Assembly (NCBI GenBank): GCA_002780895.1
Contig: PEUB01000036.1
Span: forward strand, 5,547 to 69,546
DNA length: 64,000 bases
Source: Nitrospirae bacterium CG02_land_8_20_14_3_00_41_53
GTDB lineage: Bacteria > Nitrospirota > Thermodesulfovibrionia > Thermodesulfovibrionales > SM23-35
Direction: 5' to 3'
A program made the position numbers and the translations under genes. Below are positions 2,836-63,160 of the stretch, piece by piece; within the stretch, counting starts at the first letter, position 1, and every line of letters starts with the position of its first letter. The notes beneath the pieces were generated by a model that saw only the letters and a program-made list of their open reading frames with translations, was not told the DNA's origin and did not search any database.

Positions 2836-4248
2836 TCTCTCAAACAACTTCACTATAATTGTATTTGATATAACTATTCCTTTTCTTGTAAGCCTGAGAT
2901 AACCTCTCTCAATCTCGAGATAACCTTCATCAACTAATTCTCTGGATGCTTGGAGTATATTTATGTCATTCCTGCGGAAGCAGGAATCCAGAGAAGTAAA
3001 AAAGCTGGATTCCGCATCAAGTGCGGAATGACAACTCTGATTCCGCGAAACTGTGATGTCAGATAGTGTATTAATGTTTATTCCTTCTGTCTTTCTCAAC
3101 TTTAAAAAAATTATTTCCTTTAATGTATCTGTTGGTGTTAGCTTGATTGATTCTATCTCAGGGATTATCCCGCTGTTCAAATCTTGTATATATCTGTTAA
3201 TATCTTCGGTATTTTTTGAACGTATTCCATTGATAAAAGAGTGGGCTCCTGCACCAACTCCGATGTACTCTCCTCTATCCCAATAATTGAGATTATGAAC
3301 GCATCTGAATCCTGGTAATGCAAAATTGGATATCTCATAGTGTTCATAGCCACAGCTTGCAAAATAATCTATTGCGTGGTTGTACATTTCAATGATCAGT
3401 TCTTCATCAGGCAATTTAATTTTATTTGCAAATTCCCCCTTACCCCCCTTTGCTAAAGTGGGGAATTTACCATTAATAATGTTTCCATCCCCATCGATGG
3501 GGGAGGGGTAGGGTGGGGGTGATTTTTTGTATTCATTTTCACCCTCCCCCTTATCCCCTCCCATCAAGGGAGGGGAAGTATAAGATATTTCGCGTTTATG
3601 TTGCGGGACGGGTTTATTAGATTTCAACAGTTTGTAAAGCGGCGTATTTTCCTCGAGTGTAAGTTCATAAGTGGAAATATGAGTTGGTGACAATTCGACT
3701 GCCGTTGAGATAGAATTATGCCAAGATTCAATCGCCTGACCTGGAACTCCATACATTAAATCAACTGAAAAATTATTTATGCCTTCTTTTTTAATTATCT
3801 CAATTGATCTTGAAGCATCTTCTGATGAATGAATCCTTCCGAGTGTTTTAAGCTCGTCATTATTAAATGATTGTATTCCAATGCTAAGCCTGTTAACCCC
3901 GAGAGAAAGCACCGTATTTATTTTAGATTCATTTATTGTCCCGGGATTTGCCTCTACTGTTATTTCAATATCAGACGAGAAACTAAAATTATCTTTCAGG
4001 CATATAAATAGTTGTTTAAAACATTCATCAGGCAATAAAGATGGTGTGCCACCTCCTGTGTAAATTGTTTTCAATGTCGTATAGAAATCTTTCTTAAGGT
4101 AAAGTTCTTGGTAGAGAGCATCAATGTATGTCTTTGCGACTGACTCATCATATGGCATAGAAAAGAAATCACAATATGTACATTTTTGAATGCAGAATGG
4201 AATGTGAATATAGAGTAAATTAGGCATGAACAGCGGACTCTGTTCCAT
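2821..4248 (-). CDS. hemW: Radical SAM HemN/HemW-family protein (oxygen-independent coproporphyrinogen oxidase-like / heme chaperone) carrying repeat-derived insertions
   Basis: ORF 2821..4281 has YIHIPFCIQKCTYCDF (CxxxCxxC) and the GGGTPS motif. It is about 100 aa longer than usual for the family because of in-frame repeat blocks at 2965..3032 and 3431..3576. The start is uncertain: ATG at 4248 or 4227, and the 4281 ATG lies inside a repeat. Confidence 0.8.
   Translation of the reverse strand: MEQSPLFMPNLLYIHIPFCIQKCTYCDFFSMPYDESVAKTYIDALYQELYLKKDFYTTLKTIYTGGGTPSLLPDECFKQLFICLKDNFSFSSDIEITVEANPGTINESKINTVLSLGVNRLSIGIQSFNNDELKTLGRIHSSEDASRSIEIIKKEGINNFSVDLMYGVPGQAIESWHNSISTAVELSPTHISTYELTLEENTPLYKLLKSNKPVPQHKREISYTSPPLMGGDKGEGENEYKKSPPPYPSPIDGDGNIINGKFPTLAKGGKGEFANKIKLPDEELIIEMYNHAIDYFASCGYEHYEISNFALPGFRCVHNLNYWDRGEYIGVGAGAHSFINGIRSKNTEDINRYIQDLNSGIIPEIESIKLTPTDTLKEIIFLKLRKTEGININTLSDITVSRNQSCHSALDAESSFFTSLDSCFRRNDINILQASRELVDEGYLEIERGYLRLTRKGIVISNTIIVKLFERLGID
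2965..3032. repeat. GTCAT...ATGAC hairpin-pair element, in-frame inside the hemW-like gene
   Basis: The left arm gtcattcctgcggaagcaggaatccag and right arm ctggattccgcatcaagtgcggaatgac are terminal inverted repeats. Each arm contains its own 8-bp hairpin. The element encodes HSALDAESSFFTSLDSCFRRND. Confidence 0.85.
3431..3576. repeat. Three GC-rich nested palindromic elements, in-frame inside the hemW-like gene
   Basis: Copies at 3431..3467 (aattccccc-tta-cccccc-tttgctaaa-gtgggg-aatt), 3486..3521 (reverse orientation) and 3540..3576 (caccctccccc-tta-tcccctccc-atcaa-gggagggga). Together they encode a Pro/Gly-rich stretch, SPPLMGGDKGEG...PPPYPSPIDGDG...LAKGGKGEF. Confidence 0.85.
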
Positions 4249-4252
4249 GATT

Positions 4253-4352
4253 GCATGCTGAACTCTTATGTTTAGACACACCCCTTAATCCCCTCTTGAT
4301 AGAGGGGAAAGAAGAAGTAGACTCCCCTCTATCAAGAGGGGCAGGGGGTGTG
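4253..4352. repeat. Composite repeat: catgctgaac module plus two inverted GC-rich palindromic elements
   Basis: The two copies cacacccc-tta-atcccctc-ttgata-gagggga and ctcccctc-tatcaa-gaggggc-a-gggggtgtg face each other. The gcatgctgaac module is also seen at 6607. Confidence 0.85.
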
Positions 4353-10141: not shown

Positions 10142-11020
10142 TTAATTTTTTAATCTCGCTGCAACCTCAATAATGTACTTTTTAAGCTGTTCGGAAACCT
10201 GCGAGTTTTTCAATGAGAGGTCAATTGTTGCCTTAAGGTAGCCGATCTTATCACCTGCGTCATATCTTTTTCCAGTAAATAGATATCCATATATCGGGCG
10301 TTTTTTCAGCAAACCACAAAGTGCATCTGTCAGTTGTATCTCTCCTCCTTTGCCAGGGCCAATACCTTCGAGTATCTCAAAGATATCGGGGGTAAGGATA
10401 TACCTGCCAATTATTGCCATGTCTGACGGTGCATCGGTTAATCGGGGTTTTTCTACAAGATTGTTTATCCTGTATACATTGCCTTTTTCCCTTATTCCTT
10501 CAATCACCCCATATTTGTTTATATCTGGTATAGGAACCTGTTGAAGAGCAAGGATAGGAGAGTTAAATTCCTTATAAAGATTGATCATATGCTGAAGCAA
10601 GACGGTATCGGGGTCAATGATATCATCACTCAAAAGAACTGCAAAAGGTTCGTCTTTTACAAATGGCTTTGCACAATGTATTGCATGACCAAGTCCAATG
10701 GCCGCCTTCTGCCTGATATATGCAAAGTTCAGGTGGTTCAGGCGACTAATCTCTTCAAGAAGCCTCTTTTTACCAGTCCTTTTCAGATTCTCTTCGAGTT
10801 CGAAAGCAGAATCAAAGTGATCTTCTATAGCCCGTTTGTATTTACCCGTGATAATTATAAATTCTTCTATCCCGCATGCACGTGCCTCTTCAATTGCATA
10901 CTGGATCATCGGCTTGTCAACTATAGGCAGCATCTCCTTTGGAGATGCCTTTGTTGCAGGTAGAAACCTTGTCCCAAGCCCTCCTGCAGGAAGTATAGCC
11001 TTTCTAATCTTTTTTTCCAT
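10142..11020 (-). CDS. galU: UTP--glucose-1-phosphate uridylyltransferase
   Basis: KAILPAGGLGTRFLPATKASPKEMLP N-terminal signature; 292 aa. Confidence 0.92.
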   Translation of the reverse strand: MEKKIRKAILPAGGLGTRFLPATKASPKEMLPIVDKPMIQYAIEEARACGIEEFIIITGKYKRAIEDHFDSAFELEENLKRTGKKRLLEEISRLNHLNFAYIRQKAAIGLGHAIHCAKPFVKDEPFAVLLSDDIIDPDTVLLQHMINLYKEFNSPILALQQVPIPDINKYGVIEGIREKGNVYRINNLVEKPRLTDAPSDMAIIGRYILTPDIFEILEGIGPGKGGEIQLTDALCGLLKKRPIYGYLFTGKRYDAGDKIGYLKATIDLSLKNSQVSEQLKKYIIEVAARLKN

Positions 11021-28282: not shown

Positions 28283-28403
28283 GTCATTAGTTACACCCCT
28301 CACCCTAACCCTCTTCCGCAAGGGGAGAGGGGACTTATTTTATTATCCCCTCCCTTGACGGGAGGGGATAGAGGGGAGGGTGAACTACTGATGACTAATG
28401 ACT
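28283..28403. repeat. Composite TIR-bounded element filling the acsB-cooS spacer
   Basis: 10-nt perfect terminal inverted repeats agtcattagt / actaatgact enclose two GC-rich palindromes. These are 28294..28334 (cacccctcaccc-taa-ccctcttcc-gcaa-ggggagagggg) and 28343..28382 (ttatcccctccc-ttgac-gggaggggata-gaggggagggtg). Confidence 0.85.
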
Positions 28404-33325: not shown

Positions 33326-35422
33326 ATGAAAAGACTCGATAGTATTGATGACCTTATTGTCCTCCGTAACCTTCTATTAAAAGAAGGGGTATTAGCCCCT
33401 GGTAAAAAAAGGATAAAGGTTTGTTGTGGGCTTCCCTGTAGCACCTTGGGTTCCCATGAAGTTACAAAGGAATTAGAGAATGAAATCTCTAAGAACAGTC
33501 TGGATATCGAAGTGATAAAAACAGGATGCCAGGGTCTTTGCCAGAGAGGACCCCTTATAAAGACCGAACCATATAATTATTTCTATCAGAAAGTCAGTCC
33601 AGAAAAAGTAGGAGAGATTATATCTAAGACCTTTTTAGCAGGACGACCTGTAAGAGAGTGTCTTTTCAGAGATTCTTTTCTTGAGCCACCCAAAGAAGTA
33701 ACTGAAGAGATTCCTTTTTATAAGAAGCAGCTGAAGGTTGCACTCAGGAATACTGGTTGTATAGACCCGCATAGTATATCTCACTATATTGTAACCGGCG
33801 GGTATATGGCTATTGAAAAGATATTTTCCTCCATGAGCCCAGAACAAGTACTTGAGGAGGTAACAAAGGCTAACCTCAGGGGCCGGGGTGGTGCAGGGTT
33901 CCCCGCAGGGAAAAAGTGGAAACATACCAAAAGTTCTCGTTGTGACATAAAATTTGTGATAGCCAATGGTGATGAAGGTGACCCTGGCGCTTTTATGGAC
34001 AGGTCTGTCATGGAAGGTGATCCTCACAGCCTGCTCGAGGGAATGCTTATATGTGCTTATGCAATTAGTGCACATTATGGGATTATTTATGTCCGTCACG
34101 AGTACCCTCTTGCCATTAAGAATTTGGGAATAGCTATTAATCAAGCGCAGGAGCTTGGGCTTATAGGTAAAAATATCCTCGGGACAGGATTTGATTTTAC
34201 AGTTCACATAAGGGAAGGCGCGGGTGCCTTTGTGTGCGGTGAATCTACTGCTCTTATTGCATCGGTAGAAGGAGAAAGGGGTATGCCGCGACCAAGACCT
34301 CCGCGACTTTCTGAAATTGGAGGAGGGGTTTGGGGATATCCAACTAATTTGAATAATGTAGAGACTTATGCTTGTATGCCTCAAATAATCGAGAAGGGAG
34401 CCGATTGGTTCCTGAATATAGGAACAGAAAATTCACCTGGTACAAAAGTATTTTCTCTTGCAGGAAAGGTTAAAAATACAGGGCTTATTGAAGTGCCTAT
34501 GGGGATAACCCTGAGGGAGATCATATTCGATATTGGGGGAGGAATATTAAATAATAAGAAATTCAAGGCAGTGCAGACAGGAGGGCCTTCGGGCGGGTGT
34601 ATCCCTGAGCAATATCTTGATCTGCCTGTAGATTATGATTCTCTTGCAAAGGTTGGCTCAATAATGGGTTCAGGTGGAATGGTCGTAATGGATGAGGACA
34701 ACTGTATGGTAGATGTTGCTAAGTTTTTCCTCTCCTTTACACAGGCTGAGTCATGCGGGAAATGTCCTCCATGCAGGATAGGTACATACCAGATGCTCCA
34801 AATCCTCGAAAAGATAACATTAGGCAATGGAGAGGAAGGAGATATAGGAAAACTTGAAAGGTTTGGGAAACTTGTAAAGGCAGGTTCCCTCTGTGGTCTT
34901 GGCCAGAATGCACCAAACCCTGTTCTTACGACCATCAAATATTTCCGTGAAGAATACGAAGAGCATATAAGAGATAAATATTGCAGGGCAAAGGTCTGCA
35001 CCGGACTCGGATTACTCTCAATAAACACTGAAATCTGCTACCAGTGTATGCGCTGCATGGATACATGTCCATTTGAGGCAATAAAAGAATCCAGGGAAGG
35101 TGGATTTTATATAGACCAGGTGCTCTGCCAGAGATGTAAGGCATGCTATATGGCATGTCCCTTAGGCGCTATAGAGATTAAAGAACAGCCCTTTACCTAT
35201 ATAGATACAGAGCTATGCTATCTCTGCGGCCGCTGTAAAGATGTATGCAGGATTAATGCAATAAAGGAAACTTCAACCGGATTCATGATAGATCGCTTTG
35301 TATGTAGGAAGTGCGGTGATTGTTACAATATATGCCCTATGGGAGCTGTGAGGTTTGAGAAAAGAACCCACCCCCCTGTGTCCCCCCTTAGTAAGGGGGG
35401 AATTAAAGAGGGGTGCCCTTAG
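33326..35422 (+). CDS. Second NuoF/HydB-like subunit (tandem paralog) with C-terminal polyferredoxin extension
   Basis: 698 aa with the same core motifs as the upstream paralog. Four CxxCxxCxxxCP-type clusters follow at the C-terminus. The last ~17 aa (HPPVSPLSKGGIKEGCP) are encoded by a GC-rich palindromic repeat. Confidence 0.88.
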   Translation: MKRLDSIDDLIVLRNLLLKEGVLAPGKKRIKVCCGLPCSTLGSHEVTKELENEISKNSLDIEVIKTGCQGLCQRGPLIKTEPYNYFYQKVSPEKVGEIISKTFLAGRPVRECLFRDSFLEPPKEVTEEIPFYKKQLKVALRNTGCIDPHSISHYIVTGGYMAIEKIFSSMSPEQVLEEVTKANLRGRGGAGFPAGKKWKHTKSSRCDIKFVIANGDEGDPGAFMDRSVMEGDPHSLLEGMLICAYAISAHYGIIYVRHEYPLAIKNLGIAINQAQELGLIGKNILGTGFDFTVHIREGAGAFVCGESTALIASVEGERGMPRPRPPRLSEIGGGVWGYPTNLNNVETYACMPQIIEKGADWFLNIGTENSPGTKVFSLAGKVKNTGLIEVPMGITLREIIFDIGGGILNNKKFKAVQTGGPSGGCIPEQYLDLPVDYDSLAKVGSIMGSGGMVVMDEDNCMVDVAKFFLSFTQAESCGKCPPCRIGTYQMLQILEKITLGNGEEGDIGKLERFGKLVKAGSLCGLGQNAPNPVLTTIKYFREEYEEHIRDKYCRAKVCTGLGLLSINTEICYQCMRCMDTCPFEAIKESREGGFYIDQVLCQRCKACYMACPLGAIEIKEQPFTYIDTELCYLCGRCKDVCRINAIKETSTGFMIDRFVCRKCGDCYNICPMGAVRFEKRTHPPVSPLSKGGIKEGCP
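35367..35415. repeat. GC-rich nested palindromic element forming the 3' end of the NuoF-2 gene
   Basis: cccacccccc-tgt-gtcccccc-ttagtaa-gggggg-aattaaa-gaggggtg. The stop codon is at 35420..35422. Confidence 0.8.
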
Positions 35423-52793: not shown

Positions 52794-55611
52794 TTTTCAC
52801 CTCCACATCTTTAAGCATTTTAATACTTTCTAAAATCCTTTTCTTTATAATTATCAGTTCTTCATATTTTGCTTTTTCCTTATCAATAATCTCTCTGGGC
52901 GCCCTCTGGAGGAAGTCCTCATTAAAGAGTTTCCTGTTCAAAGACACGATAGACACATCTACCTTTGCCTCCTCTTTCTTAAGTCTATCGACTTCTGCAG
53001 TAATATTCAAGACCCCTTTAAGAGGAACATATATCTCCATAGAACTCTTAACAGAGGTTGCAGAGCACTCTGGCTTCTCAATGTTCATACCTATCTTAAT
53101 TTCGCCAGCCTTTGCAAGGTTTTTGAGATATTGTACGTTTTCCTTCAATATTTTCTCTGCCATTTGAGAAAATGTCTTTATTGACACATTGAGTTTAAGT
53201 GATGGTGATATGTTCAGCTCCCCTCTGATGGTTCTTATTCCCATTACAGCCTCTATGATATATGACATGTCTTCTTCAGCCTGGTAGTCTCTTGGTAAAG
53301 ACTTCGGATAATCTGAGACCATAATACTCTCCTTAATTGCTGAATGCTGAATTTTTATCGTCTGCCAAATCTCCTCTGTAACAAAGGGCATAAAAGGATG
53401 CAGCAGCCGTAAGGATGTATCGAGTGTATGCAGGAGACACCATCTGACGCCAGTTTGTGAGTTTAGGGTTCGGGGTTCGGAGTTTCCATCCCCTCCCTTG
53501 CCCTCCCCCCTCGAGAGGGAGGGTTGGGTGGGTGGGTTGATTTCGGATTTCGCCATCTCAAGATACCAGTCACAGAATTCATGCCATACGAACTGGTATA
53601 TACTACTTGCTGCGTCATTAAACCGATATTCTTCGAGTGCCCTGTTTATATCATCTGCTATAGCGGCAAGTCTGCTCAATATCCATTTACTTGCAAGATC
53701 ATGAGGCGTGTGAGTAATCCTCTCAACCCCTTCTTTTTCAAATCCCCCCTTACCCCCCTTTTCTAAAGGGGGGGTGGGGGGATTAGTATTCATCATAATG
53801 AATCTTGCTGCGTTCCAAAGCTTATTTACAAAATGCCTGTACCCTTCAACCCTTTTTTCCGAAAACTTAATATCGCGCCCCTGTGCAGTAAAAGCAGCAA
53901 GTGTAAACCTGAATGCATCTGTACCGTATCTGTCTATCATTATCAAAGGATCAACAACATTACCTTTTGATTTAGACATCTTCTGGCCTTTCAGATCCCT
54001 GACGAGTGCATGTATATAAACATCCCTGAAAGGCACGTCTCCCATGAATTTAAGTCCCATCATTATCATCCTTGCGACCCAGAAAAAGATTATATCGAAC
54101 CCTGTCACAAGAACGCTTGTAGGATAGAAGGTCTTAAGATCGTCAGTATTATCAGGCCAGCCAAGGGTAGAAAATGGCCATAGGGCAGACGAAAACCATG
54201 TATCGAGTACATCTTCATCCTGAATCAATTCTTCTGAGCTACAGTAAGGACATACTTGTGGTACATCTCTTGATACTATAACTCCATTTTGCATTTTGCA
54301 TTTTGCATTTTGCATTTTCTGACAGTACCATACAGGTATTCTGTGTCCCCACCATATCTGACGGGATATGCACCAGTCTTTTATATCTTCCATCCATGCA
54401 AAATATGTATTCTCCCATGTTTTAGGTATGATGTTAATTTTTCCCTCTTTAACTACCCTGATAGCATCTTTAGCAATGGACTGTACATTCACATACCACT
54501 GAGGTGTTGACAGCGGCTCGGTAATAGTCTTGCATCTGTAACAGTGGCCTACAGCATATTTGTACAACTCCTCTTTTTCTAAAAGATTAAGTACCTTCAA
54601 ATCTTTAATGACAAGTTTTCTGCACTCATATCTATCCAGACCTGCATATCTGTTTCCTGCATTTACTGTCATAAGACCATCGGCCCCGATCACGGTTATG
54701 AATTCTAAAGGTGGGATCTGTTTTTTTGCTATAGCCTCGTCATTAAAATCATGGGCTGGTGTTACCTTTACTGCGCCTGTACCAAAAGAAGGGTCTACTG
54801 CATGATCAGAAATAATAAGGATTTTTCTGTCAGTTAGAGGCAGGTTTATAGTTTTACCAATGAATTTTTGGTATCTGCTGTCTTCAGGGTTTACAGCCAC
54901 AGCAGTATCTCCGAGCATCGTCTCAGGCCTGGTAGTTGCTACAGTTATATACCCCCTCTTATTATCCCCCCCCCTTGCTAAGGGGGGGATAGGGGGGGTT
55001 AGTGGATACTTTATGTAAGTCAGCTTTCCTTCTAATTCCTCGTATTCTACCTCGAGGTCGGAAAGCGCGGTGTTACAGCGGGGGCACCAGTTTATAAGCC
55101 GGTTATCCCTGTATATCAGACCTTCCTCATAAAGTCTTACAAAAACCTCTCTTACAGCCTTTGAAAGCCCATCATCAAGTGTAAACCTTTCCCTTGACCA
55201 GTCACATGAAGCGCCGAGCCTTTTAAGCTGGTGGATTATCTTTCCACCGTATTCGGCCTTCCATTTCCATACACGCTCTATAAAGGCATTACGGCCGAGT
55301 TTATCCCTATCAAGTCCCGTAGATGCGAGCTGCTTTTCTACAACGTTCTGTGTAGCAATGCCTGCATGGTCAGTGCCTGGCAGCCATAGGACTTTATAAC
55401 CTGACATACGCTTCCAGCGAGAGAGTATATCCTGTAGTACCGTATTAAGGGCATGGCCCATGTGGAGAGAACCTGTAATATTCGGAGGGGGTATTACTAA
55501 AGAGTAAAAACTGCCTTTGAGGTCCGGGTCTGGCTTAAAATATCCTTTTGAGACCCAGTATTCATACCACCTTTCTTCTATACCTTGCGGATTGTAGCCT
55601 TTTTCTAAAAT
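52783..55611 (-). CDS. valS: Valyl-tRNA synthetase carrying five in-frame repeat insertions
   Basis: The ORF-track start (ATG 55461) is the Met of the HIGH motif (PPPNITGSLHMGHA). The frame continues upstream through ILEKGYNPQGIEERWYEYW to the stop at 55636..55638 with no ATG/GTG/TTG. The candidate start is ATT at 55611..55609, 5 nt after TAAGG. KMSKS motif and C-terminal coiled coil are present. Confidence 0.9.
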   Translation of the reverse strand: MLEKGYNPQGIEERWYEYWVSKGYFKPDPDLKGSFYSLVIPPPNITGSLHMGHALNTVLQDILSRWKRMSGYKVLWLPGTDHAGIATQNVVEKQLASTGLDRDKLGRNAFIERVWKWKAEYGGKIIHQLKRLGASCDWSRERFTLDDGLSKAVREVFVRLYEEGLIYRDNRLINWCPRCNTALSDLEVEYEELEGKLTYIKYPLTPPIPPLARGGDNKRGYITVATTRPETMLGDTAVAVNPEDSRYQKFIGKTINLPLTDRKILIISDHAVDPSFGTGAVKVTPAHDFNDEAIAKKQIPPLEFITVIGADGLMTVNAGNRYAGLDRYECRKLVIKDLKVLNLLEKEELYKYAVGHCYRCKTITEPLSTPQWYVNVQSIAKDAIRVVKEGKINIIPKTWENTYFAWMEDIKDWCISRQIWWGHRIPVWYCQKMQNAKCKMQNGVIVSRDVPQVCPYCSSEELIQDEDVLDTWFSSALWPFSTLGWPDNTDDLKTFYPTSVLVTGFDIIFFWVARMIMMGLKFMGDVPFRDVYIHALVRDLKGQKMSKSKGNVVDPLIMIDRYGTDAFRFTLAAFTAQGRDIKFSEKRVEGYRHFVNKLWNAARFIMMNTNPPTPPLEKGGKGGFEKEGVERITHTPHDLASKWILSRLAAIADDINRALEEYRFNDAASSIYQFVWHEFCDWYLEMAKSEINPPTQPSLSRGEGKGGDGNSEPRTLNSQTGVRWCLLHTLDTSLRLLHPFMPFVTEEIWQTIKIQHSAIKESIMVSDYPKSLPRDYQAEEDMSYIIEAVMGIRTIRGELNISPSLKLNVSIKTFSQMAEKILKENVQYLKNLAKAGEIKIGMNIEKPECSATSVKSSMEIYVPLKGVLNITAEVDRLKKEEAKVDVSIVSLNRKLFNEDFLQRAPREIIDKEKAKYEELIIIKKRILESIKMLKDVEVKNDP
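53452..53537. repeat. Heptad array (53452..53486) abutting a GC-rich nested palindrome (53487..53537), in-frame in valS
   Basis: agtttgt gagttta gggttcg gggttcg gagtttc, then catcccctccc-ttg-ccctcccccc-tcgag-agggaggg-ttg-ggtgggtggg. Encodes PPTQPSLSRGEGKGGDGNSEPRTLNSQTG. Confidence 0.85.
53741..53784. repeat. GC-rich nested palindrome in-frame in valS
   Basis: aatcccccc-tta-cccccc-ttttctaaa-gggggg-gt-gggggg-att. Encodes PPTPPLEKGGKGGF. Confidence 0.9.
54284..54318. repeat. Heptad tandem array, ccatttt then (gcatttt)x4, in-frame in valS
   Basis: Tandem 7-nt units. On the coding strand they read (aaaatgc)n and encode CQKMQNAKCKMQNG. Confidence 0.9.
54951..54999. repeat. GC-rich nested palindrome in-frame in valS
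   Basis: accccctc-ttat-tatccccccc-cttgctaag-ggggggata-gggggggt. Encodes TPPIPPLARGGDNKRG just before the ATTRPETMLGDTAVAV motif. Confidence 0.9.
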
Positions 55612-59337: not shown

Positions 59338-59487
59338 TATATCCCCATCCATATTGAATCATTCAGTGCACCCTAAATGGATATGAATTTTTGCATATTA
59401 TAGCATTAGAGCAAAAATTCAACAAAAAAATCCATATTTCTTTTCTGGGTATTGTCTTATTGAACACCGAAAGGCAAAAATAAAGAT

Positions 59488-60429
59488 ATGTTTATGGATT
59501 TAAATACTATGAAACTGAGAAGGCCAACCATCATGTTGTTCTTATTATTTTTCCTTACTTTTATGAATACTCTTTATGCCGAACCCAATAAGATCCAGAC
59601 AAAAGAAGTCATAGTCATTTTTGAGGAGCCATTAGAAAACGTGGCTAAAGATGTAGTGAAGGTATACCCTGCTGTTAAAGCAGATCTCGTTGCAACCCTC
59701 GATTGGAAGGTTGATGTCAGACCAGATGTAATTCTGGTTAAAGATAAAAGCACCCTAATGAAAATGGTCGGAAGCGATATAATTATTGCATTTGCTATCC
59801 CTGACAGAAATCTTATTGTACTTGATACCTCAAGGATATATACCAGGCCCTTTACCCTTGAGGCAACACTCAAGCACGAGTTATGTCATATCCTTTTGCA
59901 CAGCAATATCAAAAACGATAGACTGCCCAGATGGCTTGACGAGGGGGTCTGCCAATGGGCAAGCGGAGGGATTGCAGAGCTTATAGCAGACGACGGGGAC
60001 AGTGCGATTACAAAAGCTACAATTTCTGACAGTACAATAAGCATAGGGGATCTCATAAGATTTCCTCGCGATGAAAAGTCTCTTCTTCTTGCGTATGAGG
60101 AAAGCAAAAGCATCGTGGAATATATCGTCAGTGAGTACGGCAAGCAAGGGATTTTACAGATACTTGAATATCTGAAAGAAGGGCATTCTATAGACGATTC
60201 TATCCAGAAAAGTCTTTCTGTCAGTACTTCCGAACTTGAGATTAAGTGGCTTGTATATCTAAAAAGAAAGCATACTTGGTTTTCATATTTAAGCTACAAC
60301 ATCTACACAATCCTCTTTTTCCTCGCCGCTGTGATTACTGTATATGGTTTTATAAGATTGCTGAAAAAGAAAAGGGCTTATGTTGATGAGGATGAAGAGA
60401 AGGGTAGGGGGGGTGGAAACACATCCTGA
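59488..60429 (+). CDS. Putative membrane-anchored zinc metallopeptidase (HExxH)
   Basis: N-terminal signal/TM, HELCHILLH motif and a C-terminal TM helix (IYTILFFLAAVITVYGFI). The start may be ATG 59509. Confidence 0.55.
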   Translation: MFMDLNTMKLRRPTIMLFLLFFLTFMNTLYAEPNKIQTKEVIVIFEEPLENVAKDVVKVYPAVKADLVATLDWKVDVRPDVILVKDKSTLMKMVGSDIIIAFAIPDRNLIVLDTSRIYTRPFTLEATLKHELCHILLHSNIKNDRLPRWLDEGVCQWASGGIAELIADDGDSAITKATISDSTISIGDLIRFPRDEKSLLLAYEESKSIVEYIVSEYGKQGILQILEYLKEGHSIDDSIQKSLSVSTSELEIKWLVYLKRKHTWFSYLSYNIYTILFFLAAVITVYGFIRLLKKKRAYVDEDEEKGRGGGNTS

Positions 60430-60490
60430 AAGTAATATAGAAAGTACTATAGTAAAAAAAGTAGTAAAATAGGGACACATCCCATTTTAC

Positions 60491-60519
60491 TTGACATCCA
60501 AGACTATAGTCGTTAAACT
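60491..60519 (+). promoter_or_regulatory. Candidate promoter giving a leaderless RAYT transcript
   Basis: TTGACA (60491..60496), 17 nt, then TAAACT (60514..60519). The ATG at 60525 is only 5 nt downstream and has no SD. Confidence 0.35.
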
Positions 60520-60524
60520 TCCCA

Positions 60525-61196
60525 ATGCCAAGGATCGGTAGAGCGGTTGCACCGGGCTATCCGCACCATGTCATTCAAAGAGGAAATAACAAAGAGCATG
60601 TCTTCTTTGAAAAAGAAGACCGAGAGCAGTATCTGTCATTGCTAAAGAAATATGCCTTCAAGTGGAACTCTCCGATTATGGCCTACTGCCTGATGAGCAA
60701 TCATGTCCATTTGCTGACAAAGCCGGAAACGAACGAATCGTTGTTTAAGATGATGCAGGGACTCACTCTCTGCTACACGCAACATATAAATAGGACGTAT
60801 GAGAGGACAGGCAGATTGTGGGAAAGTCGCTATCATTCATGCATTGTGGATCATGAGAAATACCTGTGGGCGGTTGCACGGTATATCGAGCAAAATCCGG
60901 TTAGGGCAAAGATGGTTGAGAGAGCCGAAGACTATGCCTATTCAAGTGCCCGATCTCATGTAAAGGGCAGCGAGGATCCTGTTCTGGGAGAAGACCTATT
61001 TAGCAATGACGTACGAAAGGACTATATACTCCTGCTGCGCTCTGATATGCCTGAAAAAGAAATTGAGAGGTTGCGCTATGCTACAAAAACGGGAAGACCT
61101 CTTGGCAGTGCGGAGTTTGTGGTCGAGATGGAAAAGAAGCTTGAAAGAAGGCTTTTGCAACGCCCGAAGGGAAGACCGAGGAAGAAATGCCGTTAA
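60525..61196 (+). CDS. REP-associated tyrosine transposase (RAYT; IS200-like Y1 transposase family)
   Basis: 223 aa with YHVIQRGN-type start (PHHVIQRGNNKEHVF), HUH motif MSNHVHLL and catalytic-Tyr region WAVARYIEQNPVRAKMV. The C-terminus is basic, ending GRPRKK. Confidence 0.85.
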   Translation: MPRIGRAVAPGYPHHVIQRGNNKEHVFFEKEDREQYLSLLKKYAFKWNSPIMAYCLMSNHVHLLTKPETNESLFKMMQGLTLCYTQHINRTYERTGRLWESRYHSCIVDHEKYLWAVARYIEQNPVRAKMVERAEDYAYSSARSHVKGSEDPVLGEDLFSNDVRKDYILLLRSDMPEKEIERLRYATKTGRPLGSAEFVVEMEKKLERRLLQRPKGRPRKKCR

Positions 61197-61335
61197 AATG
61201 GGATGTGTCCCTATTTTCAATTTTCTATTTTCACTATTTTCAAGAAAAAAAGCGATCCTGATCGGAAATAGAAAAATTCTATTCCCTATTTTTGGTTCTT
61301 CAGAGAATTGTGTGGAAGGTGCATACCCAAAAAAA

Positions 61336-61368
61336 CCCTCCCCTAACCCCTCCCATCGAGGGAGGGGG
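61336..61368. repeat. GC-rich nested palindrome (intergenic)
   Basis: ccctcccc-taa-cccctccc-atcga-gggaggggg. Confidence 0.8.
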
Positions 61369-61460
61369 ACTAATTTGGAAGACTCCTTTCAAGGACAGGG
61401 GCTAATAGCGGTCTCTACAGAAAAGTCTGAAGGACCTTTTTATTGGGTAGCTTTGTTTAG

Positions 61461-61490
61461 TTGACTTTGAATACAGACGCTGTTTAAACT
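61461..61490 (+). promoter_or_regulatory. Candidate promoter giving a near-leaderless argS transcript
   Basis: TTGACT (61461..61466), 18 nt, then TAAACT (61485..61490). The ATG at 61499 is 8 nt downstream and has no SD. Confidence 0.35.
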
Positions 61491-61498
61491 CTATTTCC

Positions 61499-63160
61499 AT
61501 GAAAAAAGAACTCGTAAAAGTAATTGAGGATTCACTTAAAGCACTCGGTCTGGAGACAATCCCTTCTATTGAGGCAGAAGTTCCACCTAACGATTCTATG
61601 GGCGATTTGGCAACGCCTGTAGCAATGTCCATAGCGGCATTACTAAAAAAATCTCCGAGAAAGATAGCAGAAGAACTTATAAATTCCATTAAAGACTTGT
61701 CTGCAAAGGCAGGTAAATCTGCCTTTGAGAAGATAGATATTGCAGGTCCTGGATTCATTAACTTTACATTCTCAAAAGAATATCTGTATTCAGAGATTAA
61801 GAAATTAATTGAGTATAAAAGCGGATTTTTGAGGGAGGATATTGGTAAAGGCAGAAGGGTCCAGATTGAATTCATTAGTGCAAATCCGACAGGCCCGCTC
61901 CATCTTGGACATGGAAGGGGTGGTGCTACAGGTGAAGCCCTCTCAAATCTTCTTAATGCTGCAGGATATAAGGTTGAGCGTGAGTATTATATAAACGATG
62001 CAGGTAAGCAGGTAAAACTCCTCGGTTTATCCGTATTTGCCCGCTATCAGCAATTGCTTGGGATAGAATATCCGTTTCCAGAGGAAGGGTATAAAGGTGG
62101 ATATATAGAGGATGTCGCAAATGAGATAATTAAAGAAAATGGCAAAAAATTCCTTCAGAGAAGCTTTGAAGCAGTATCAGATTTCTTCATTGATTATTCT
62201 TACAGGATGATTTTGTCCGGTATAAAAAAAGATTTAAAGGATTTTGGTATTAATTTTGATACATGGCAGAGTGAAGAAGAACTATACAAAAAAGGAGATG
62301 TAGAAGAAGCTATTGAAGATCTCAAAATAAAGGGTTTTATATATGAAAAAGATGGTGCAACATGGTTCAGATCAACAGCATTTGGAGATGACAAAGACAG
62401 GGTTATTATAAAACAGGATGGCGAGTATACATATTTCACTTCTGACATCGCATACCATAAGAAGAAAATAGAGAAGACATATGATGAGCTAATTGATATA
62501 TGGGGCGCTGACCACCATGGTTATATCCCAAGGGTTAAGGCTGTCATTGAGGCACTGGGCTATCCAAAAGAGAAATTAAAGGTTTTACTTGTACAGATGG
62601 TTAATCTGCTGAGAGGCGGGAAACCTGTCCAGATGTCAAAAAGGGCAGGTGAGTTCGTAACGTTGAGAGAGGTTATGAATGAAGTTGGTCCAGATACAAC
62701 AAAATTTATATTCCTTACAAGAAGACCTGACAGCCATCTCGATTTTGACCTTGAAGTTGCAAAAGCACAGTCATCAGAAAACCCTGTTTTTTATGTACAA
62801 TATGCAAATGCAAGGATAAACAGCATATTTACCCATGCAAAAGAAAAAGGTATCAATACAGACAGGCTTTATGATGCAGACCTCATGCTATTATCTGTTT
62901 ATGATGAACTCAGGATAATCAGGAAGCTCCTTATCTATCCGATGGTATTTGAAGGCGCTGTCAATACCTATGAGCCGCACAGGATTACATTCTACCTGCA
63001 AGAAATTTCTGGCATGTTTCATCCTTACTACAATAAATTCAGGGTTGTAAGCGATGATATTGAACTGACCAGGGCAAGACTTGCTCTGTGTGGAGCTATA
63101 AGGATTGTACTCCAGGATGGTCTTGAGATACTCGGTATAAGTGCCCCCGAGAAGATGTGA
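61499..63160 (+). CDS. argS: Arginyl-tRNA synthetase
   Basis: 553 aa with SANPTGPLHLGHGR (HIGH), an MSKR-type loop (QMSKRAG) and a C-terminal DALR anticodon-binding domain ending in M. Confidence 0.95.
   Translation: MKKELVKVIEDSLKALGLETIPSIEAEVPPNDSMGDLATPVAMSIAALLKKSPRKIAEELINSIKDLSAKAGKSAFEKIDIAGPGFINFTFSKEYLYSEIKKLIEYKSGFLREDIGKGRRVQIEFISANPTGPLHLGHGRGGATGEALSNLLNAAGYKVEREYYINDAGKQVKLLGLSVFARYQQLLGIEYPFPEEGYKGGYIEDVANEIIKENGKKFLQRSFEAVSDFFIDYSYRMILSGIKKDLKDFGINFDTWQSEEELYKKGDVEEAIEDLKIKGFIYEKDGATWFRSTAFGDDKDRVIIKQDGEYTYFTSDIAYHKKKIEKTYDELIDIWGADHHGYIPRVKAVIEALGYPKEKLKVLLVQMVNLLRGGKPVQMSKRAGEFVTLREVMNEVGPDTTKFIFLTRRPDSHLDFDLEVAKAQSSENPVFYVQYANARINSIFTHAKEKGINTDRLYDADLMLLSVYDELRIIRKLLIYPMVFEGAVNTYEPHRITFYLQEISGMFHPYYNKFRVVSDDIELTRARLALCGAIRIVLQDGLEILGISAPEKM

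Follow-up and report, generated by a model that had tools for sequence, protein, structure and literature searches.

A probable 752-bp TIRtron in a groundwater Nitrospirota genome: perfect terminal inverted repeats around a RAYT-clade Y1 transposase gene

Introduction

Genes that resemble those of the REP-associated tyrosine transposases (RAYTs; REP, repetitive extragenic palindrome) and that are flanked by terminal inverted repeats (TIRs) have been defined as TIRtrons or TIRYTs, many of which have the motif GGGGWSAS (Di Nocera et al. 2013, PMC3733652). This article describes a candidate TIRtron from a groundwater Nitrospirota genome, Nitrospirae bacterium CG02_land_8_20_14_3_00_41_53 (assembly GCA_002780895.1). 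The stretch analysed, termed here the window, is 64,000 nt of contig PEUB01000036.1 (positions 5,547 to 69,546, forward strand), and the element occupies 752 nt near its end: a gene for a Y1 HUH tyrosine transposase-like protein bracketed by two TIRs of 24 nt.

The published TIR families are moderately abundant and are found as dimers or clusters (PMC3733652). In the classification of Y1 transposases (TnpA-Y1), subclass 2.1 corresponds to RAYT Group 1 of Bertels et al. 2017 and, probably, to the TIRYTs (Quentin et al. 2018, PMC6006769). Group 1 is the largest and most insertion sequence (IS)-like of the RAYT groups, with about 12 occurrences of the flanking 16-mer per replicon (PMC5581495). 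Proteins of subclass 2.1 have a median length of 238 aa and share the signatures NHVH, W[EQ], YIELNP and an SS tail motif (PMC6006769 Table 1). Their C-terminal extension resembles a helix-turn-helix (HTH) domain, and this region is heterogeneous in group 2.1.2 (PMC6006769).

Organization of the element

The features of the locus are as follows, with coordinates as positions in the window.

60466-61217, whole element, 752 nt: left TIR, promoter, one gene and right TIR
60466-60489, plus strand, left TIR, AAAATAGGGACACATCCCATTTTA: one arm of an exact inverted pair, with a predicted fold as single-stranded DNA (ssDNA)
60491-60519, plus strand, predicted sigma-70-type promoter, TTGACA-17-TAAACT: 10 of 12 matches in a promoter scan
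60525-61196, plus strand, Y1 HUH tyrosine transposase-like gene, 223 aa: from its open reading frame, profile matches and motifs
61194-61217, minus strand, right TIR: an exact reverse-complement copy of the left TIR, in which bases 61194-61196 are the stop codon TAA
61209-61240, plus strand, three copies of CTATTTTCA, read directly: one forms the outer end of the right TIR, and two partial repeats follow just outside it
60442-61239, no strand, lineage-specific segment of 798 nt: the 752-nt element with 24 nt to its left and 22 nt to its right

Judged by its sequence, the locus is likely a TIRtron of 752 bp that consists of two 24-bp TIRs, an inward promoter predicted to yield a leaderless mRNA, and a single gene of the RAYT clade of Y1 transposases. 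An inverted-repeat search of the window gives the two arms as 100% complementary, and none of 100 dinucleotide-preserving shuffles has any inverted-repeat match at up to three mismatches. The stop codon of the gene, at 61194-61196, is thus inside the right TIR. A preliminary description, made from the letters of the window, had recorded the perfect flanking repeats, the stop codon within the right copy, the HUH and catalytic tyrosine signatures of the protein, and a TTGACA-17-TAAACT motif abutting the left repeat with no Shine-Dalgarno sequence. Each of these was found again, with SNHVHLL at residues 58-64 and ARYIEQNP at residues 118-125 of the 223-aa reading frame.

The promoter hexamers TTGACA (60491-60496) and TAAACT (60514-60519) are separated by a 17-nt spacer. 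One nucleotide separates the promoter from the left TIR, and 5 nt lie between its -10 hexamer and the ATG, so the predicted mRNA would be leaderless and lack a Shine-Dalgarno sequence. The five bases between the -10 hexamer and the ATG are TCCCA, with no purine run and no Shine-Dalgarno sequence. The preliminary description had called the gene apparently leaderless, and the layout bears this out: of 13 distinct loci that carry the gene, 9 retain it (TIR, TTGAC[A/T/G], 17 nt, TAnnnT, 5 or 6 nt, ATG), and the sequence of the spacer is not conserved. Variant arrangements are also seen. In locus L060 (5516-6306; loci from other genomes carry L numbers) about 60 nt separate the TIR-linked promoter from the ATG, and this copy is therefore not leaderless; in an Omnitrophota homologue of 48% identity (L121, 2355-3101) a doublet of TIRs lies directly upstream of the ATG and there is no downstream TIR. 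On the minus strand of the window, an antisense promoter-like sequence, TTGGCA-17-TATAGT (60503-60531, 10 of 12 matches), overlaps the first bases of the gene and may be fortuitous; the 5' end of IS200 carries an antisense RNA (PMC4513863).

The arrangement is not peculiar to this locus. Homologues 72-83% identical to the protein are found in four unrelated contexts, without synteny to the window, and they keep the same block: the TIR core GGGACACATCCC, TTGACA, 17 nt, TAnnnT, 5 or 6 nt, ATG, and a right TIR that overlaps the stop codon or lies within about 20 nt after it. The repeat-promoter-gene-repeat unit is thus conserved as a portable block across unrelated contexts, among homologues of 42-83% identity. 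Full-length homologues of 35-38% identity on plasmids of P. aeruginosa and R. rubrum have the same TIR geometry (L177 and L179), and their TIRs carry GGGGACAG or GGGGTCAG, both of which match the published GGGGWSAS motif (PMC3733652).

Terminal repeats

The repeat core GGGACACATCCC is invariant in all homologous loci, and across phyla the repeat has a 22-nt consensus, (A/T)AAATA-GGGACACATCCC-ATTTT(T). Among the homologues, synonymous sites in the gene have come close to saturation or reached it (proportion of synonymous differences, pS, 0.47-0.93). The invariance of the TIR therefore points to constraint and not to recent divergence. The bases that flank the core co-vary at the two ends of a locus: in L009 each end has CAGGG, and in L011 each end has ATTAGGG...CCCATATT. 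A more distant homologue, L020, carries GGGGACAC in its TIR.

As the preliminary description had proposed in calling the repeats REP hairpins, both arms can be folded, and the hairpins are imperfect. The left TIR as ssDNA is predicted to form a GGGA/TCCC stem with a CACA loop, an A/T extension and one bulged A (-8.2 kcal/mol, z -4.5), and the right TIR folds at -5.0 kcal/mol (z -3.6). TIRs of the family generally are predicted to have a stem of 9-12 bp, one bulged base and a 4-nt loop (-5 to -8 kcal/mol, z -3 to -6.7). No Rfam model matched within 59400-61900.

Of 243 TIR copies, 15 are accompanied by a truncated tandem copy of the outer TIR end, as against 0.6 expected. The truncated copies are situated just outside complete TIRs, e.g. 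AAATAGGGACA-AAATAGGGACACATCCC, and examples are at L008 9925-9960, L011 9920-9960, L037 5275-5315, L060 5480-5530 and L114 4235-4275. They may have been left behind by aberrant cleavage and joining, or by replication slippage.

The transposase

The Pfam domain Y1_Tnp (PF01797) matches the protein at 64.5 bits (cut-off 23) over profile positions 8-121 of 121, and it is found in all 38 aligned homologues. The HUH motif is N59-H60-V61-H62 and the tyrosine motif begins at Y120 (Y120-IEQNP); W99-E100 and Y139-S-S141 are additional motifs. In the alignment of 38 homologues the invariant columns are H60, H62, W99, Y120, N124, P125, S140 and S141, and H60 and H62 together with Y120 are predicted to be catalytic. 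The signatures of subclass 2.1 are present: NHVH, WE, YIEQNP (one substitution relative to YIELNP), YSS and a length of 223 aa. On motifs and length, the protein can be assigned to subclass 2.1, i.e. RAYT Group 1. The gene is under purifying selection, with a ratio of nonsynonymous to synonymous change (dN/dS) of 0.06-0.14 in the four comparisons that allowed an estimate of dS.

The C-terminal region of about 100 aa has no family assignment. It matches 1101 cluster representatives; in full-length matches it is always C-terminal and follows about 124 aa, and many other matches are short fragments. All that a library-wide HMMER search with this region recovered were fragments and complete proteins of the same family, and no Pfam domain was detected in residues 125-223 in any of the 38 members. 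A search of the PDB with the single sequence gave only noise. With the family profile, the sole match was the E. coli TnpA-REP structure 4ER8, at a marginal E of 0.51, over the W...Y-NP...SS region.

Dispersed repeats and doublets

The repeat is widely dispersed in other genomes. A scan of 596 Gb, with one genome per species, for the 17-mer AGGGACACATCCCATTT gave matches in at least 120 genome tiles from about 15 phyla. The listed tiles include Nitrospirota, Omnitrophota, Atribacterota, anammox and other Planctomycetota, NC10, Thermodesulfobacteriota, Elusimicrobia, Cloacimonadota, Aminicenantes and others. Among the matches listed there are 45 head-to-head doublets (24-192 nt spacing), 7 gene-flanking pairs and 82 solo copies. 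A transposase match is present in about 14 listed tiles, at 31-90% identity; several of these matches cover fragments, and in one case the gene is divided between two tiles. Several assemblies have more than one tile: Scalindua rubra at least 5 (including a gene copy), Syntrophaceae UWMA-0184 at least 6, and Subterrananammoxibius at least 4, with at least 10 copies. The exact 24-mer was also found in 36 additional metagenome stretches, where the arrangements are similarly mixed; the window's own contig is not among these. Thus the repeats are not unique to the present locus, a possibility that the preliminary description had kept in view.

Chance was considered as the main source of the 17-mer matches. 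By our own estimate, at uniform base composition, about 69 matches could arise by chance in 596 Gb. This source was ruled out by the unsearched AAAT flank, of which at least three of four bases are present in 60 of 71 solo copies among the matches listed; about five tiles look like chance matches. In viral contigs, a 16-mer gave five isolated single matches.

The doublets show how the gene-less copies may have originated. One doublet, in L096, retains remnants of both ends of the gene ('MSRVARIVVKEYPHHIV' and 'RPKGRPRKHLK*'), and another, in L028, retains a C-terminal remnant ('LLQRPKGRPKRASL*'). These two doublets are therefore internal-deletion derivatives of full elements. Two doublets in a single genome (L136) differ at two positions and have unrelated flanks, and their identity ends at the outer TIR ends, which argues that the doublet was duplicated as a discrete unit. 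No target-site duplication beyond chance was detected in 73 repeat pairs, and this is consistent with HUH Y1 chemistry. Many doublets can be folded into one long hairpin, at -24 to -37 kcal/mol. Neither the promoter layout linked to the left TIR, with its leaderless start, nor the internal-deletion doublets were found stated in the consulted passages of PMC3733652, PMC6006769 and PMC5581495, and both are described here.

Two single cases may be added. In L006, which has a homologue of 79% identity, an extra TIR copy immediately follows the right TIR (10678-10725); the pair forms a perfect hairpin with a 22-bp stem (-24.5 kcal/mol) and is a REPIN-like doublet attached to a full element. A TIR copy at L038 2050-2066 is on a 2.1-kb contig (CAYSLW010000326.1) binned to Candidatus Methanoperedens, an archaeon. 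Only subclass 1.1 has been reported from Archaea (PMC6006769), and the copy may represent a binning artefact or horizontal transfer.

Genomic site and host population

Public assemblies record the identical protein in 170 blocks. From these, 24 contigs were read, and every one has the neighbourhood nadE, Peptidase_MA_2, transposase gene, argS; the element is therefore fixed at one site in the population. One of these contigs belongs to the metagenome-assembled genome GCA_009993295.1, in which the neighbouring ArgS has the NCBI name 'Nitrospirae bacterium CG_4_10_14_0_8_um_filter_41_23'. In its host genome the element looks single-copy and fixed.

Three congeners (L174, L175 and L176; ArgS 91-94% identical) have kept nadE, Peptidase_MA and argS, and the transposase gene is absent. 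Between Peptidase_MA and argS they have other cargo, i.e. ParE/antitoxin, BrnT/CopG or DUF2283 modules. Homology to the congeners stops at 60441 and resumes at 61240 (61236 for L176). These breaks on both sides indicate that the element is lineage-specific cargo in a variable cassette site. Since it looks single-copy and fixed in such a site between the Peptidase_MA gene and argS, it is probably quiescent.

The cassette site spans 60430-61498 in the window, 2430-4000 in L174, 2238-4000 in L175 and 2731-4000 in L176, and the homology breaks are sharp, the left flank ending in ...gtaatataga and the right flank resuming with tcaaga. Other TIRtrons also adjoin toxin-antitoxin genes (Gp49/HI1420 in L011, Xre-MbcA/RES in L006), as do two plasmid hits, one next to a MazE-like gene (H1) and one next to the doc toxin gene (H7). 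The association of TIRtrons with toxin-antitoxin genes is anecdotal.

G/C-rich palindromes of the window

The window has a separate REP-like family, the palindromes (ccctta)TCCCCTC-N4-9-GAGGGGA, in about nine copies without a GTAG foot. They are situated as follows.

3554-3576, 4289-4308, 4324-4341, 28344-28370 and 35381-35401, G/C-rich palindromes
53501-53523, 53753-53773, 54963-54991 and 61347-61367, G/C-rich palindromes, continued

One copy is 130 nt downstream of the right TIR. A link between the transposase and these abundant palindromes was considered and rejected, as they have no motif, foot or loop in common with the TIR. This bears out the remark in the preliminary description that the 24-mer is unlike the abundant repeat families of the window; the shared 5' tetranucleotide that it suggested looking for was not seen.

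Weighing the readings

Several points weigh against the locus being a mobile TIRtron of the published type. The first concerns copy number: no further copy of the 24-mer or of its 16-nt core is present in the window at up to three mismatches, as the preliminary description had also found, and the downstream flank, of which about 7 kb was read in other assemblies, has no extra TIR copy either. The second concerns the repeat itself. The window TIR has AGGGACAC, which matches the GGGGWSAS motif at seven of eight positions, with A for the first G. Also, the outer A/T part of the hairpin shows no compensatory change in variants such as L009 and L011, which makes recognition of the repeat as duplex as possible as its recognition as a hairpin. 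The third concerns the protein. No match to Bac_DnaA_C, HTH_23 or HTH_28 of Pfam was found in the 38 members at E values up to 5, and an AlphaFold2 model built from an alignment of 38 sequences (67-91% identity) is too poor for use (mean pLDDT 50, pTM 0.32). In addition, the congener site is a replaced cassette and not a clean empty site, and the insertion boundaries are thus only inferred. Last, the literature searched yielded no biochemical or genetic data on any TIRYT, nor later work on them, and cleavage, strand specificity and mobility are for this reason all inferred.

These points have to be set against the alternatives. One is a classical domesticated REP-RAYT system, in which a vertically inherited, single-copy RAYT maintains a high-copy REP or REPIN population and the flanking 24-mers are two members of that population; the preliminary description spoke of the classic REP-RAYT arrangement. 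The Y---NP motif is of the RAYT type, REP_Tyr_transpos ranks first among the NCBIfam models, the inverted repeats on either side form hairpins, the identical protein is in one context only in the contigs read, and REPIN-like doublets are present in other genomes. Canonical RAYTs of this kind make up subclasses 2.2 and 2.5, or Groups 2 and 3 of Bertels et al. However, the REP_Tyr_transpos score of 73.4 bits is under the equivalog cut-off of 80. The GT[AG]G foot is not conserved; the consensus at the foot of the hairpin is (A/T)AAATA, and in the window a GTAG is separated by 1 nt from the outer end of the left arm; in L006 it abuts the left arm, and the right arm and the other loci have none. 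The window and the flank downstream of it are devoid of additional copies. E. coli has roughly one REP per 8 kb. Nor does the gene behave as a vertically conserved one, as it is absent from the orthologous site of the congeners and is non-syntenic among homologues, and the repeat sequence is common to many phyla, whereas cognate REPs are lineage-specific. A classical REP-RAYT system is therefore unlikely here. Of the RAYT-type designation in the preliminary description, membership of the RAYT clade stands, on the Y---NP motif and the best NCBIfam match, as opposed to IS200; a place within REP_Tyr_transpos proper does not, and neither does the classic arrangement.

A second alternative, an ordinary tnpA-only element of the IS200/IS605 family that transposes via subterminal hairpins on one strand, is quite improbable. 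Such an element would account for the Y1_Tnp domain, the size of about 750 bp (as in IS200), the hairpin-forming ends, the lack of target-site duplication, the different sites in different genomes and the annotation of the homologues simply as 'transposase'. But the NCBIfam equivalog model transpos_IS200 scores 18.7 bits against a cut-off of 55. The tyrosine motif YIEQNP is that of class 2, not the Y[IV]ENQ of class 1 (PMC6006769), and the protein has 223 aa with a C-terminal extension, compared with a median of 152 aa in subclass 1.1 (PMC6006769 Table 1). The ends are true inverted repeats and not like-oriented subterminal hairpins. No tnpB neighbour was present in the five distinct gene-bearing loci for which called genes were listed, so that the IS200/IS605 TnpA with adjacent tnpB, envisaged in the preliminary description as a competing identity, did not materialize; a multicopy population of near-identical elements was not seen either.

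That the repeats are an operator and a terminator-like hairpin of a resident gene, with no mobile element, is very improbable: the left repeat does abut the -35 hexamer, the right one is at the stop codon and the scan lists the left repeat (minus strand) as terminator-like, but the stems are A/T-rich with only three G-C pairs and so would be poor intrinsic terminators, at least 100 tiles, drawn from many phyla, contain the 22-24-nt sequence as gene-less doublets or solo copies, and doublets with gene-end remnants as well as duplicated doublets with unrelated flanks are the behaviour of an element.

Possible mechanism and significance

The TIRtron reading is thus retained, and the element is regarded as an additional member of the published TIRYT/TIRtron class, equivalent to TnpA-Y1 subclass 2.1 and RAYT Group 1, with its biochemistry read by analogy. 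The 752-nt element is probably mobile. In the mechanism we propose, the protein would recognize the repeat, probably as an imperfect hairpin with a bulged base on ssDNA, on the model of IS608 and E. coli TnpA-REP. Single strands would then be cut and rejoined through Tyr120 and a metal site at His60/His62 (by analogy with PMC3597680 and PMC3479197), so that the whole element would be moved, or the doublets in trans. Binding at the left TIR, 1 nt from the -35 hexamer, might also repress the element's own promoter.

A broader proposal is offered tentatively, as possible though hardly the likelier outcome. The repeat AAATA-GGGACACATCCC-ATTTT and its Y1 enzyme may constitute a still-active, autonomous single-strand transposon family with doublets resembling miniature inverted-repeat transposable elements (MITEs), which spreads horizontally among at least 15 mostly anaerobic subsurface phyla. 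If so, the enzyme would be the first of the RAYT clade with evident whole-element mobility, and the family would be a natural intermediate between IS200-like insertion sequences and the domesticated REP-RAYT systems. The truncated tandem TIR ends would then be footprints of the cleavage and joining reaction.

The TIR-associated Y1 transposases form the largest and least understood RAYT group, and a biochemically studied member was not found in the literature searched. The locus and its relatives offer a compact set of substrates, i.e. a 22-nt consensus TIR, full elements, deletion derivatives and doublets, which could show whether enzymes of the RAYT clade move DNA and by what route REP/REPIN systems arose from an IS200-like ancestor. 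As an addition to the annotation of the genome the result is modest, being a single small mobile element, probably quiescent, in a hot spot for toxin-antitoxin cassettes.

Comparison with known systems

The element is most similar to the TIRYTs/TIRtrons. Like them, it has a RAYT-like Y1 gene between long TIRs and not GTAG REPs, and its gene runs at the 3' end into the right TIR. It has a GGG(G)WSAS-type motif, AGGGACAC, and the TIRs are also found as dimers, clusters or solo copies, although here these are seen in other genomes. The protein signatures NHVH, W[EQ], YIE[L/Q]NP and the SS tail are shared, as is a length near 230 aa. Low copy number, a patchy but wide distribution and contexts that suggest horizontal transfer are also in common. 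It differs from the published elements in the A that replaces the first G of the motif, in a 22-nt consensus common to about 15 phyla, and in a C-terminal region with no match to Bac_DnaA_C, HTH_23 or HTH_28.

With E. coli TnpA-REP (RayT/YafM; 4ER8, PMC3479197) the element shares the HUH/Tyr core, the Y---NP motif and inverted repeats that form hairpins. The E. coli REPs, in contrast, have a GTAG foot and long G/C-rich stems, are present in hundreds of copies and belong with a vertically inherited gene; none of this is seen here.

The IS200/IS605 TnpA proteins (IS608, ISDra2, IS200; PMC3597680) have Y1 HUH chemistry in common with it, and there are similarities in the imperfect hairpins with an extrahelical base, in the lack of target-site duplication and in size, IS200 being about 0.7 kb. 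The IS200/IS605 proteins are of another subclass, however, and the ends of these elements are not inverted repeats; they often carry tnpB and are multicopy and near-identical.

The doublets, finally, resemble REPINs and MITEs (PMC3116915, PMC3337134). Like REPINs, they are gene-less, head-to-head, have variable spacers and can form long hairpins; like MITEs, they appear to originate by internal deletion. Unlike the REPINs, the TIR copies per genome are few (at least 2-10), and the repeat is common to several phyla, whereas REPIN populations are lineage-specific.

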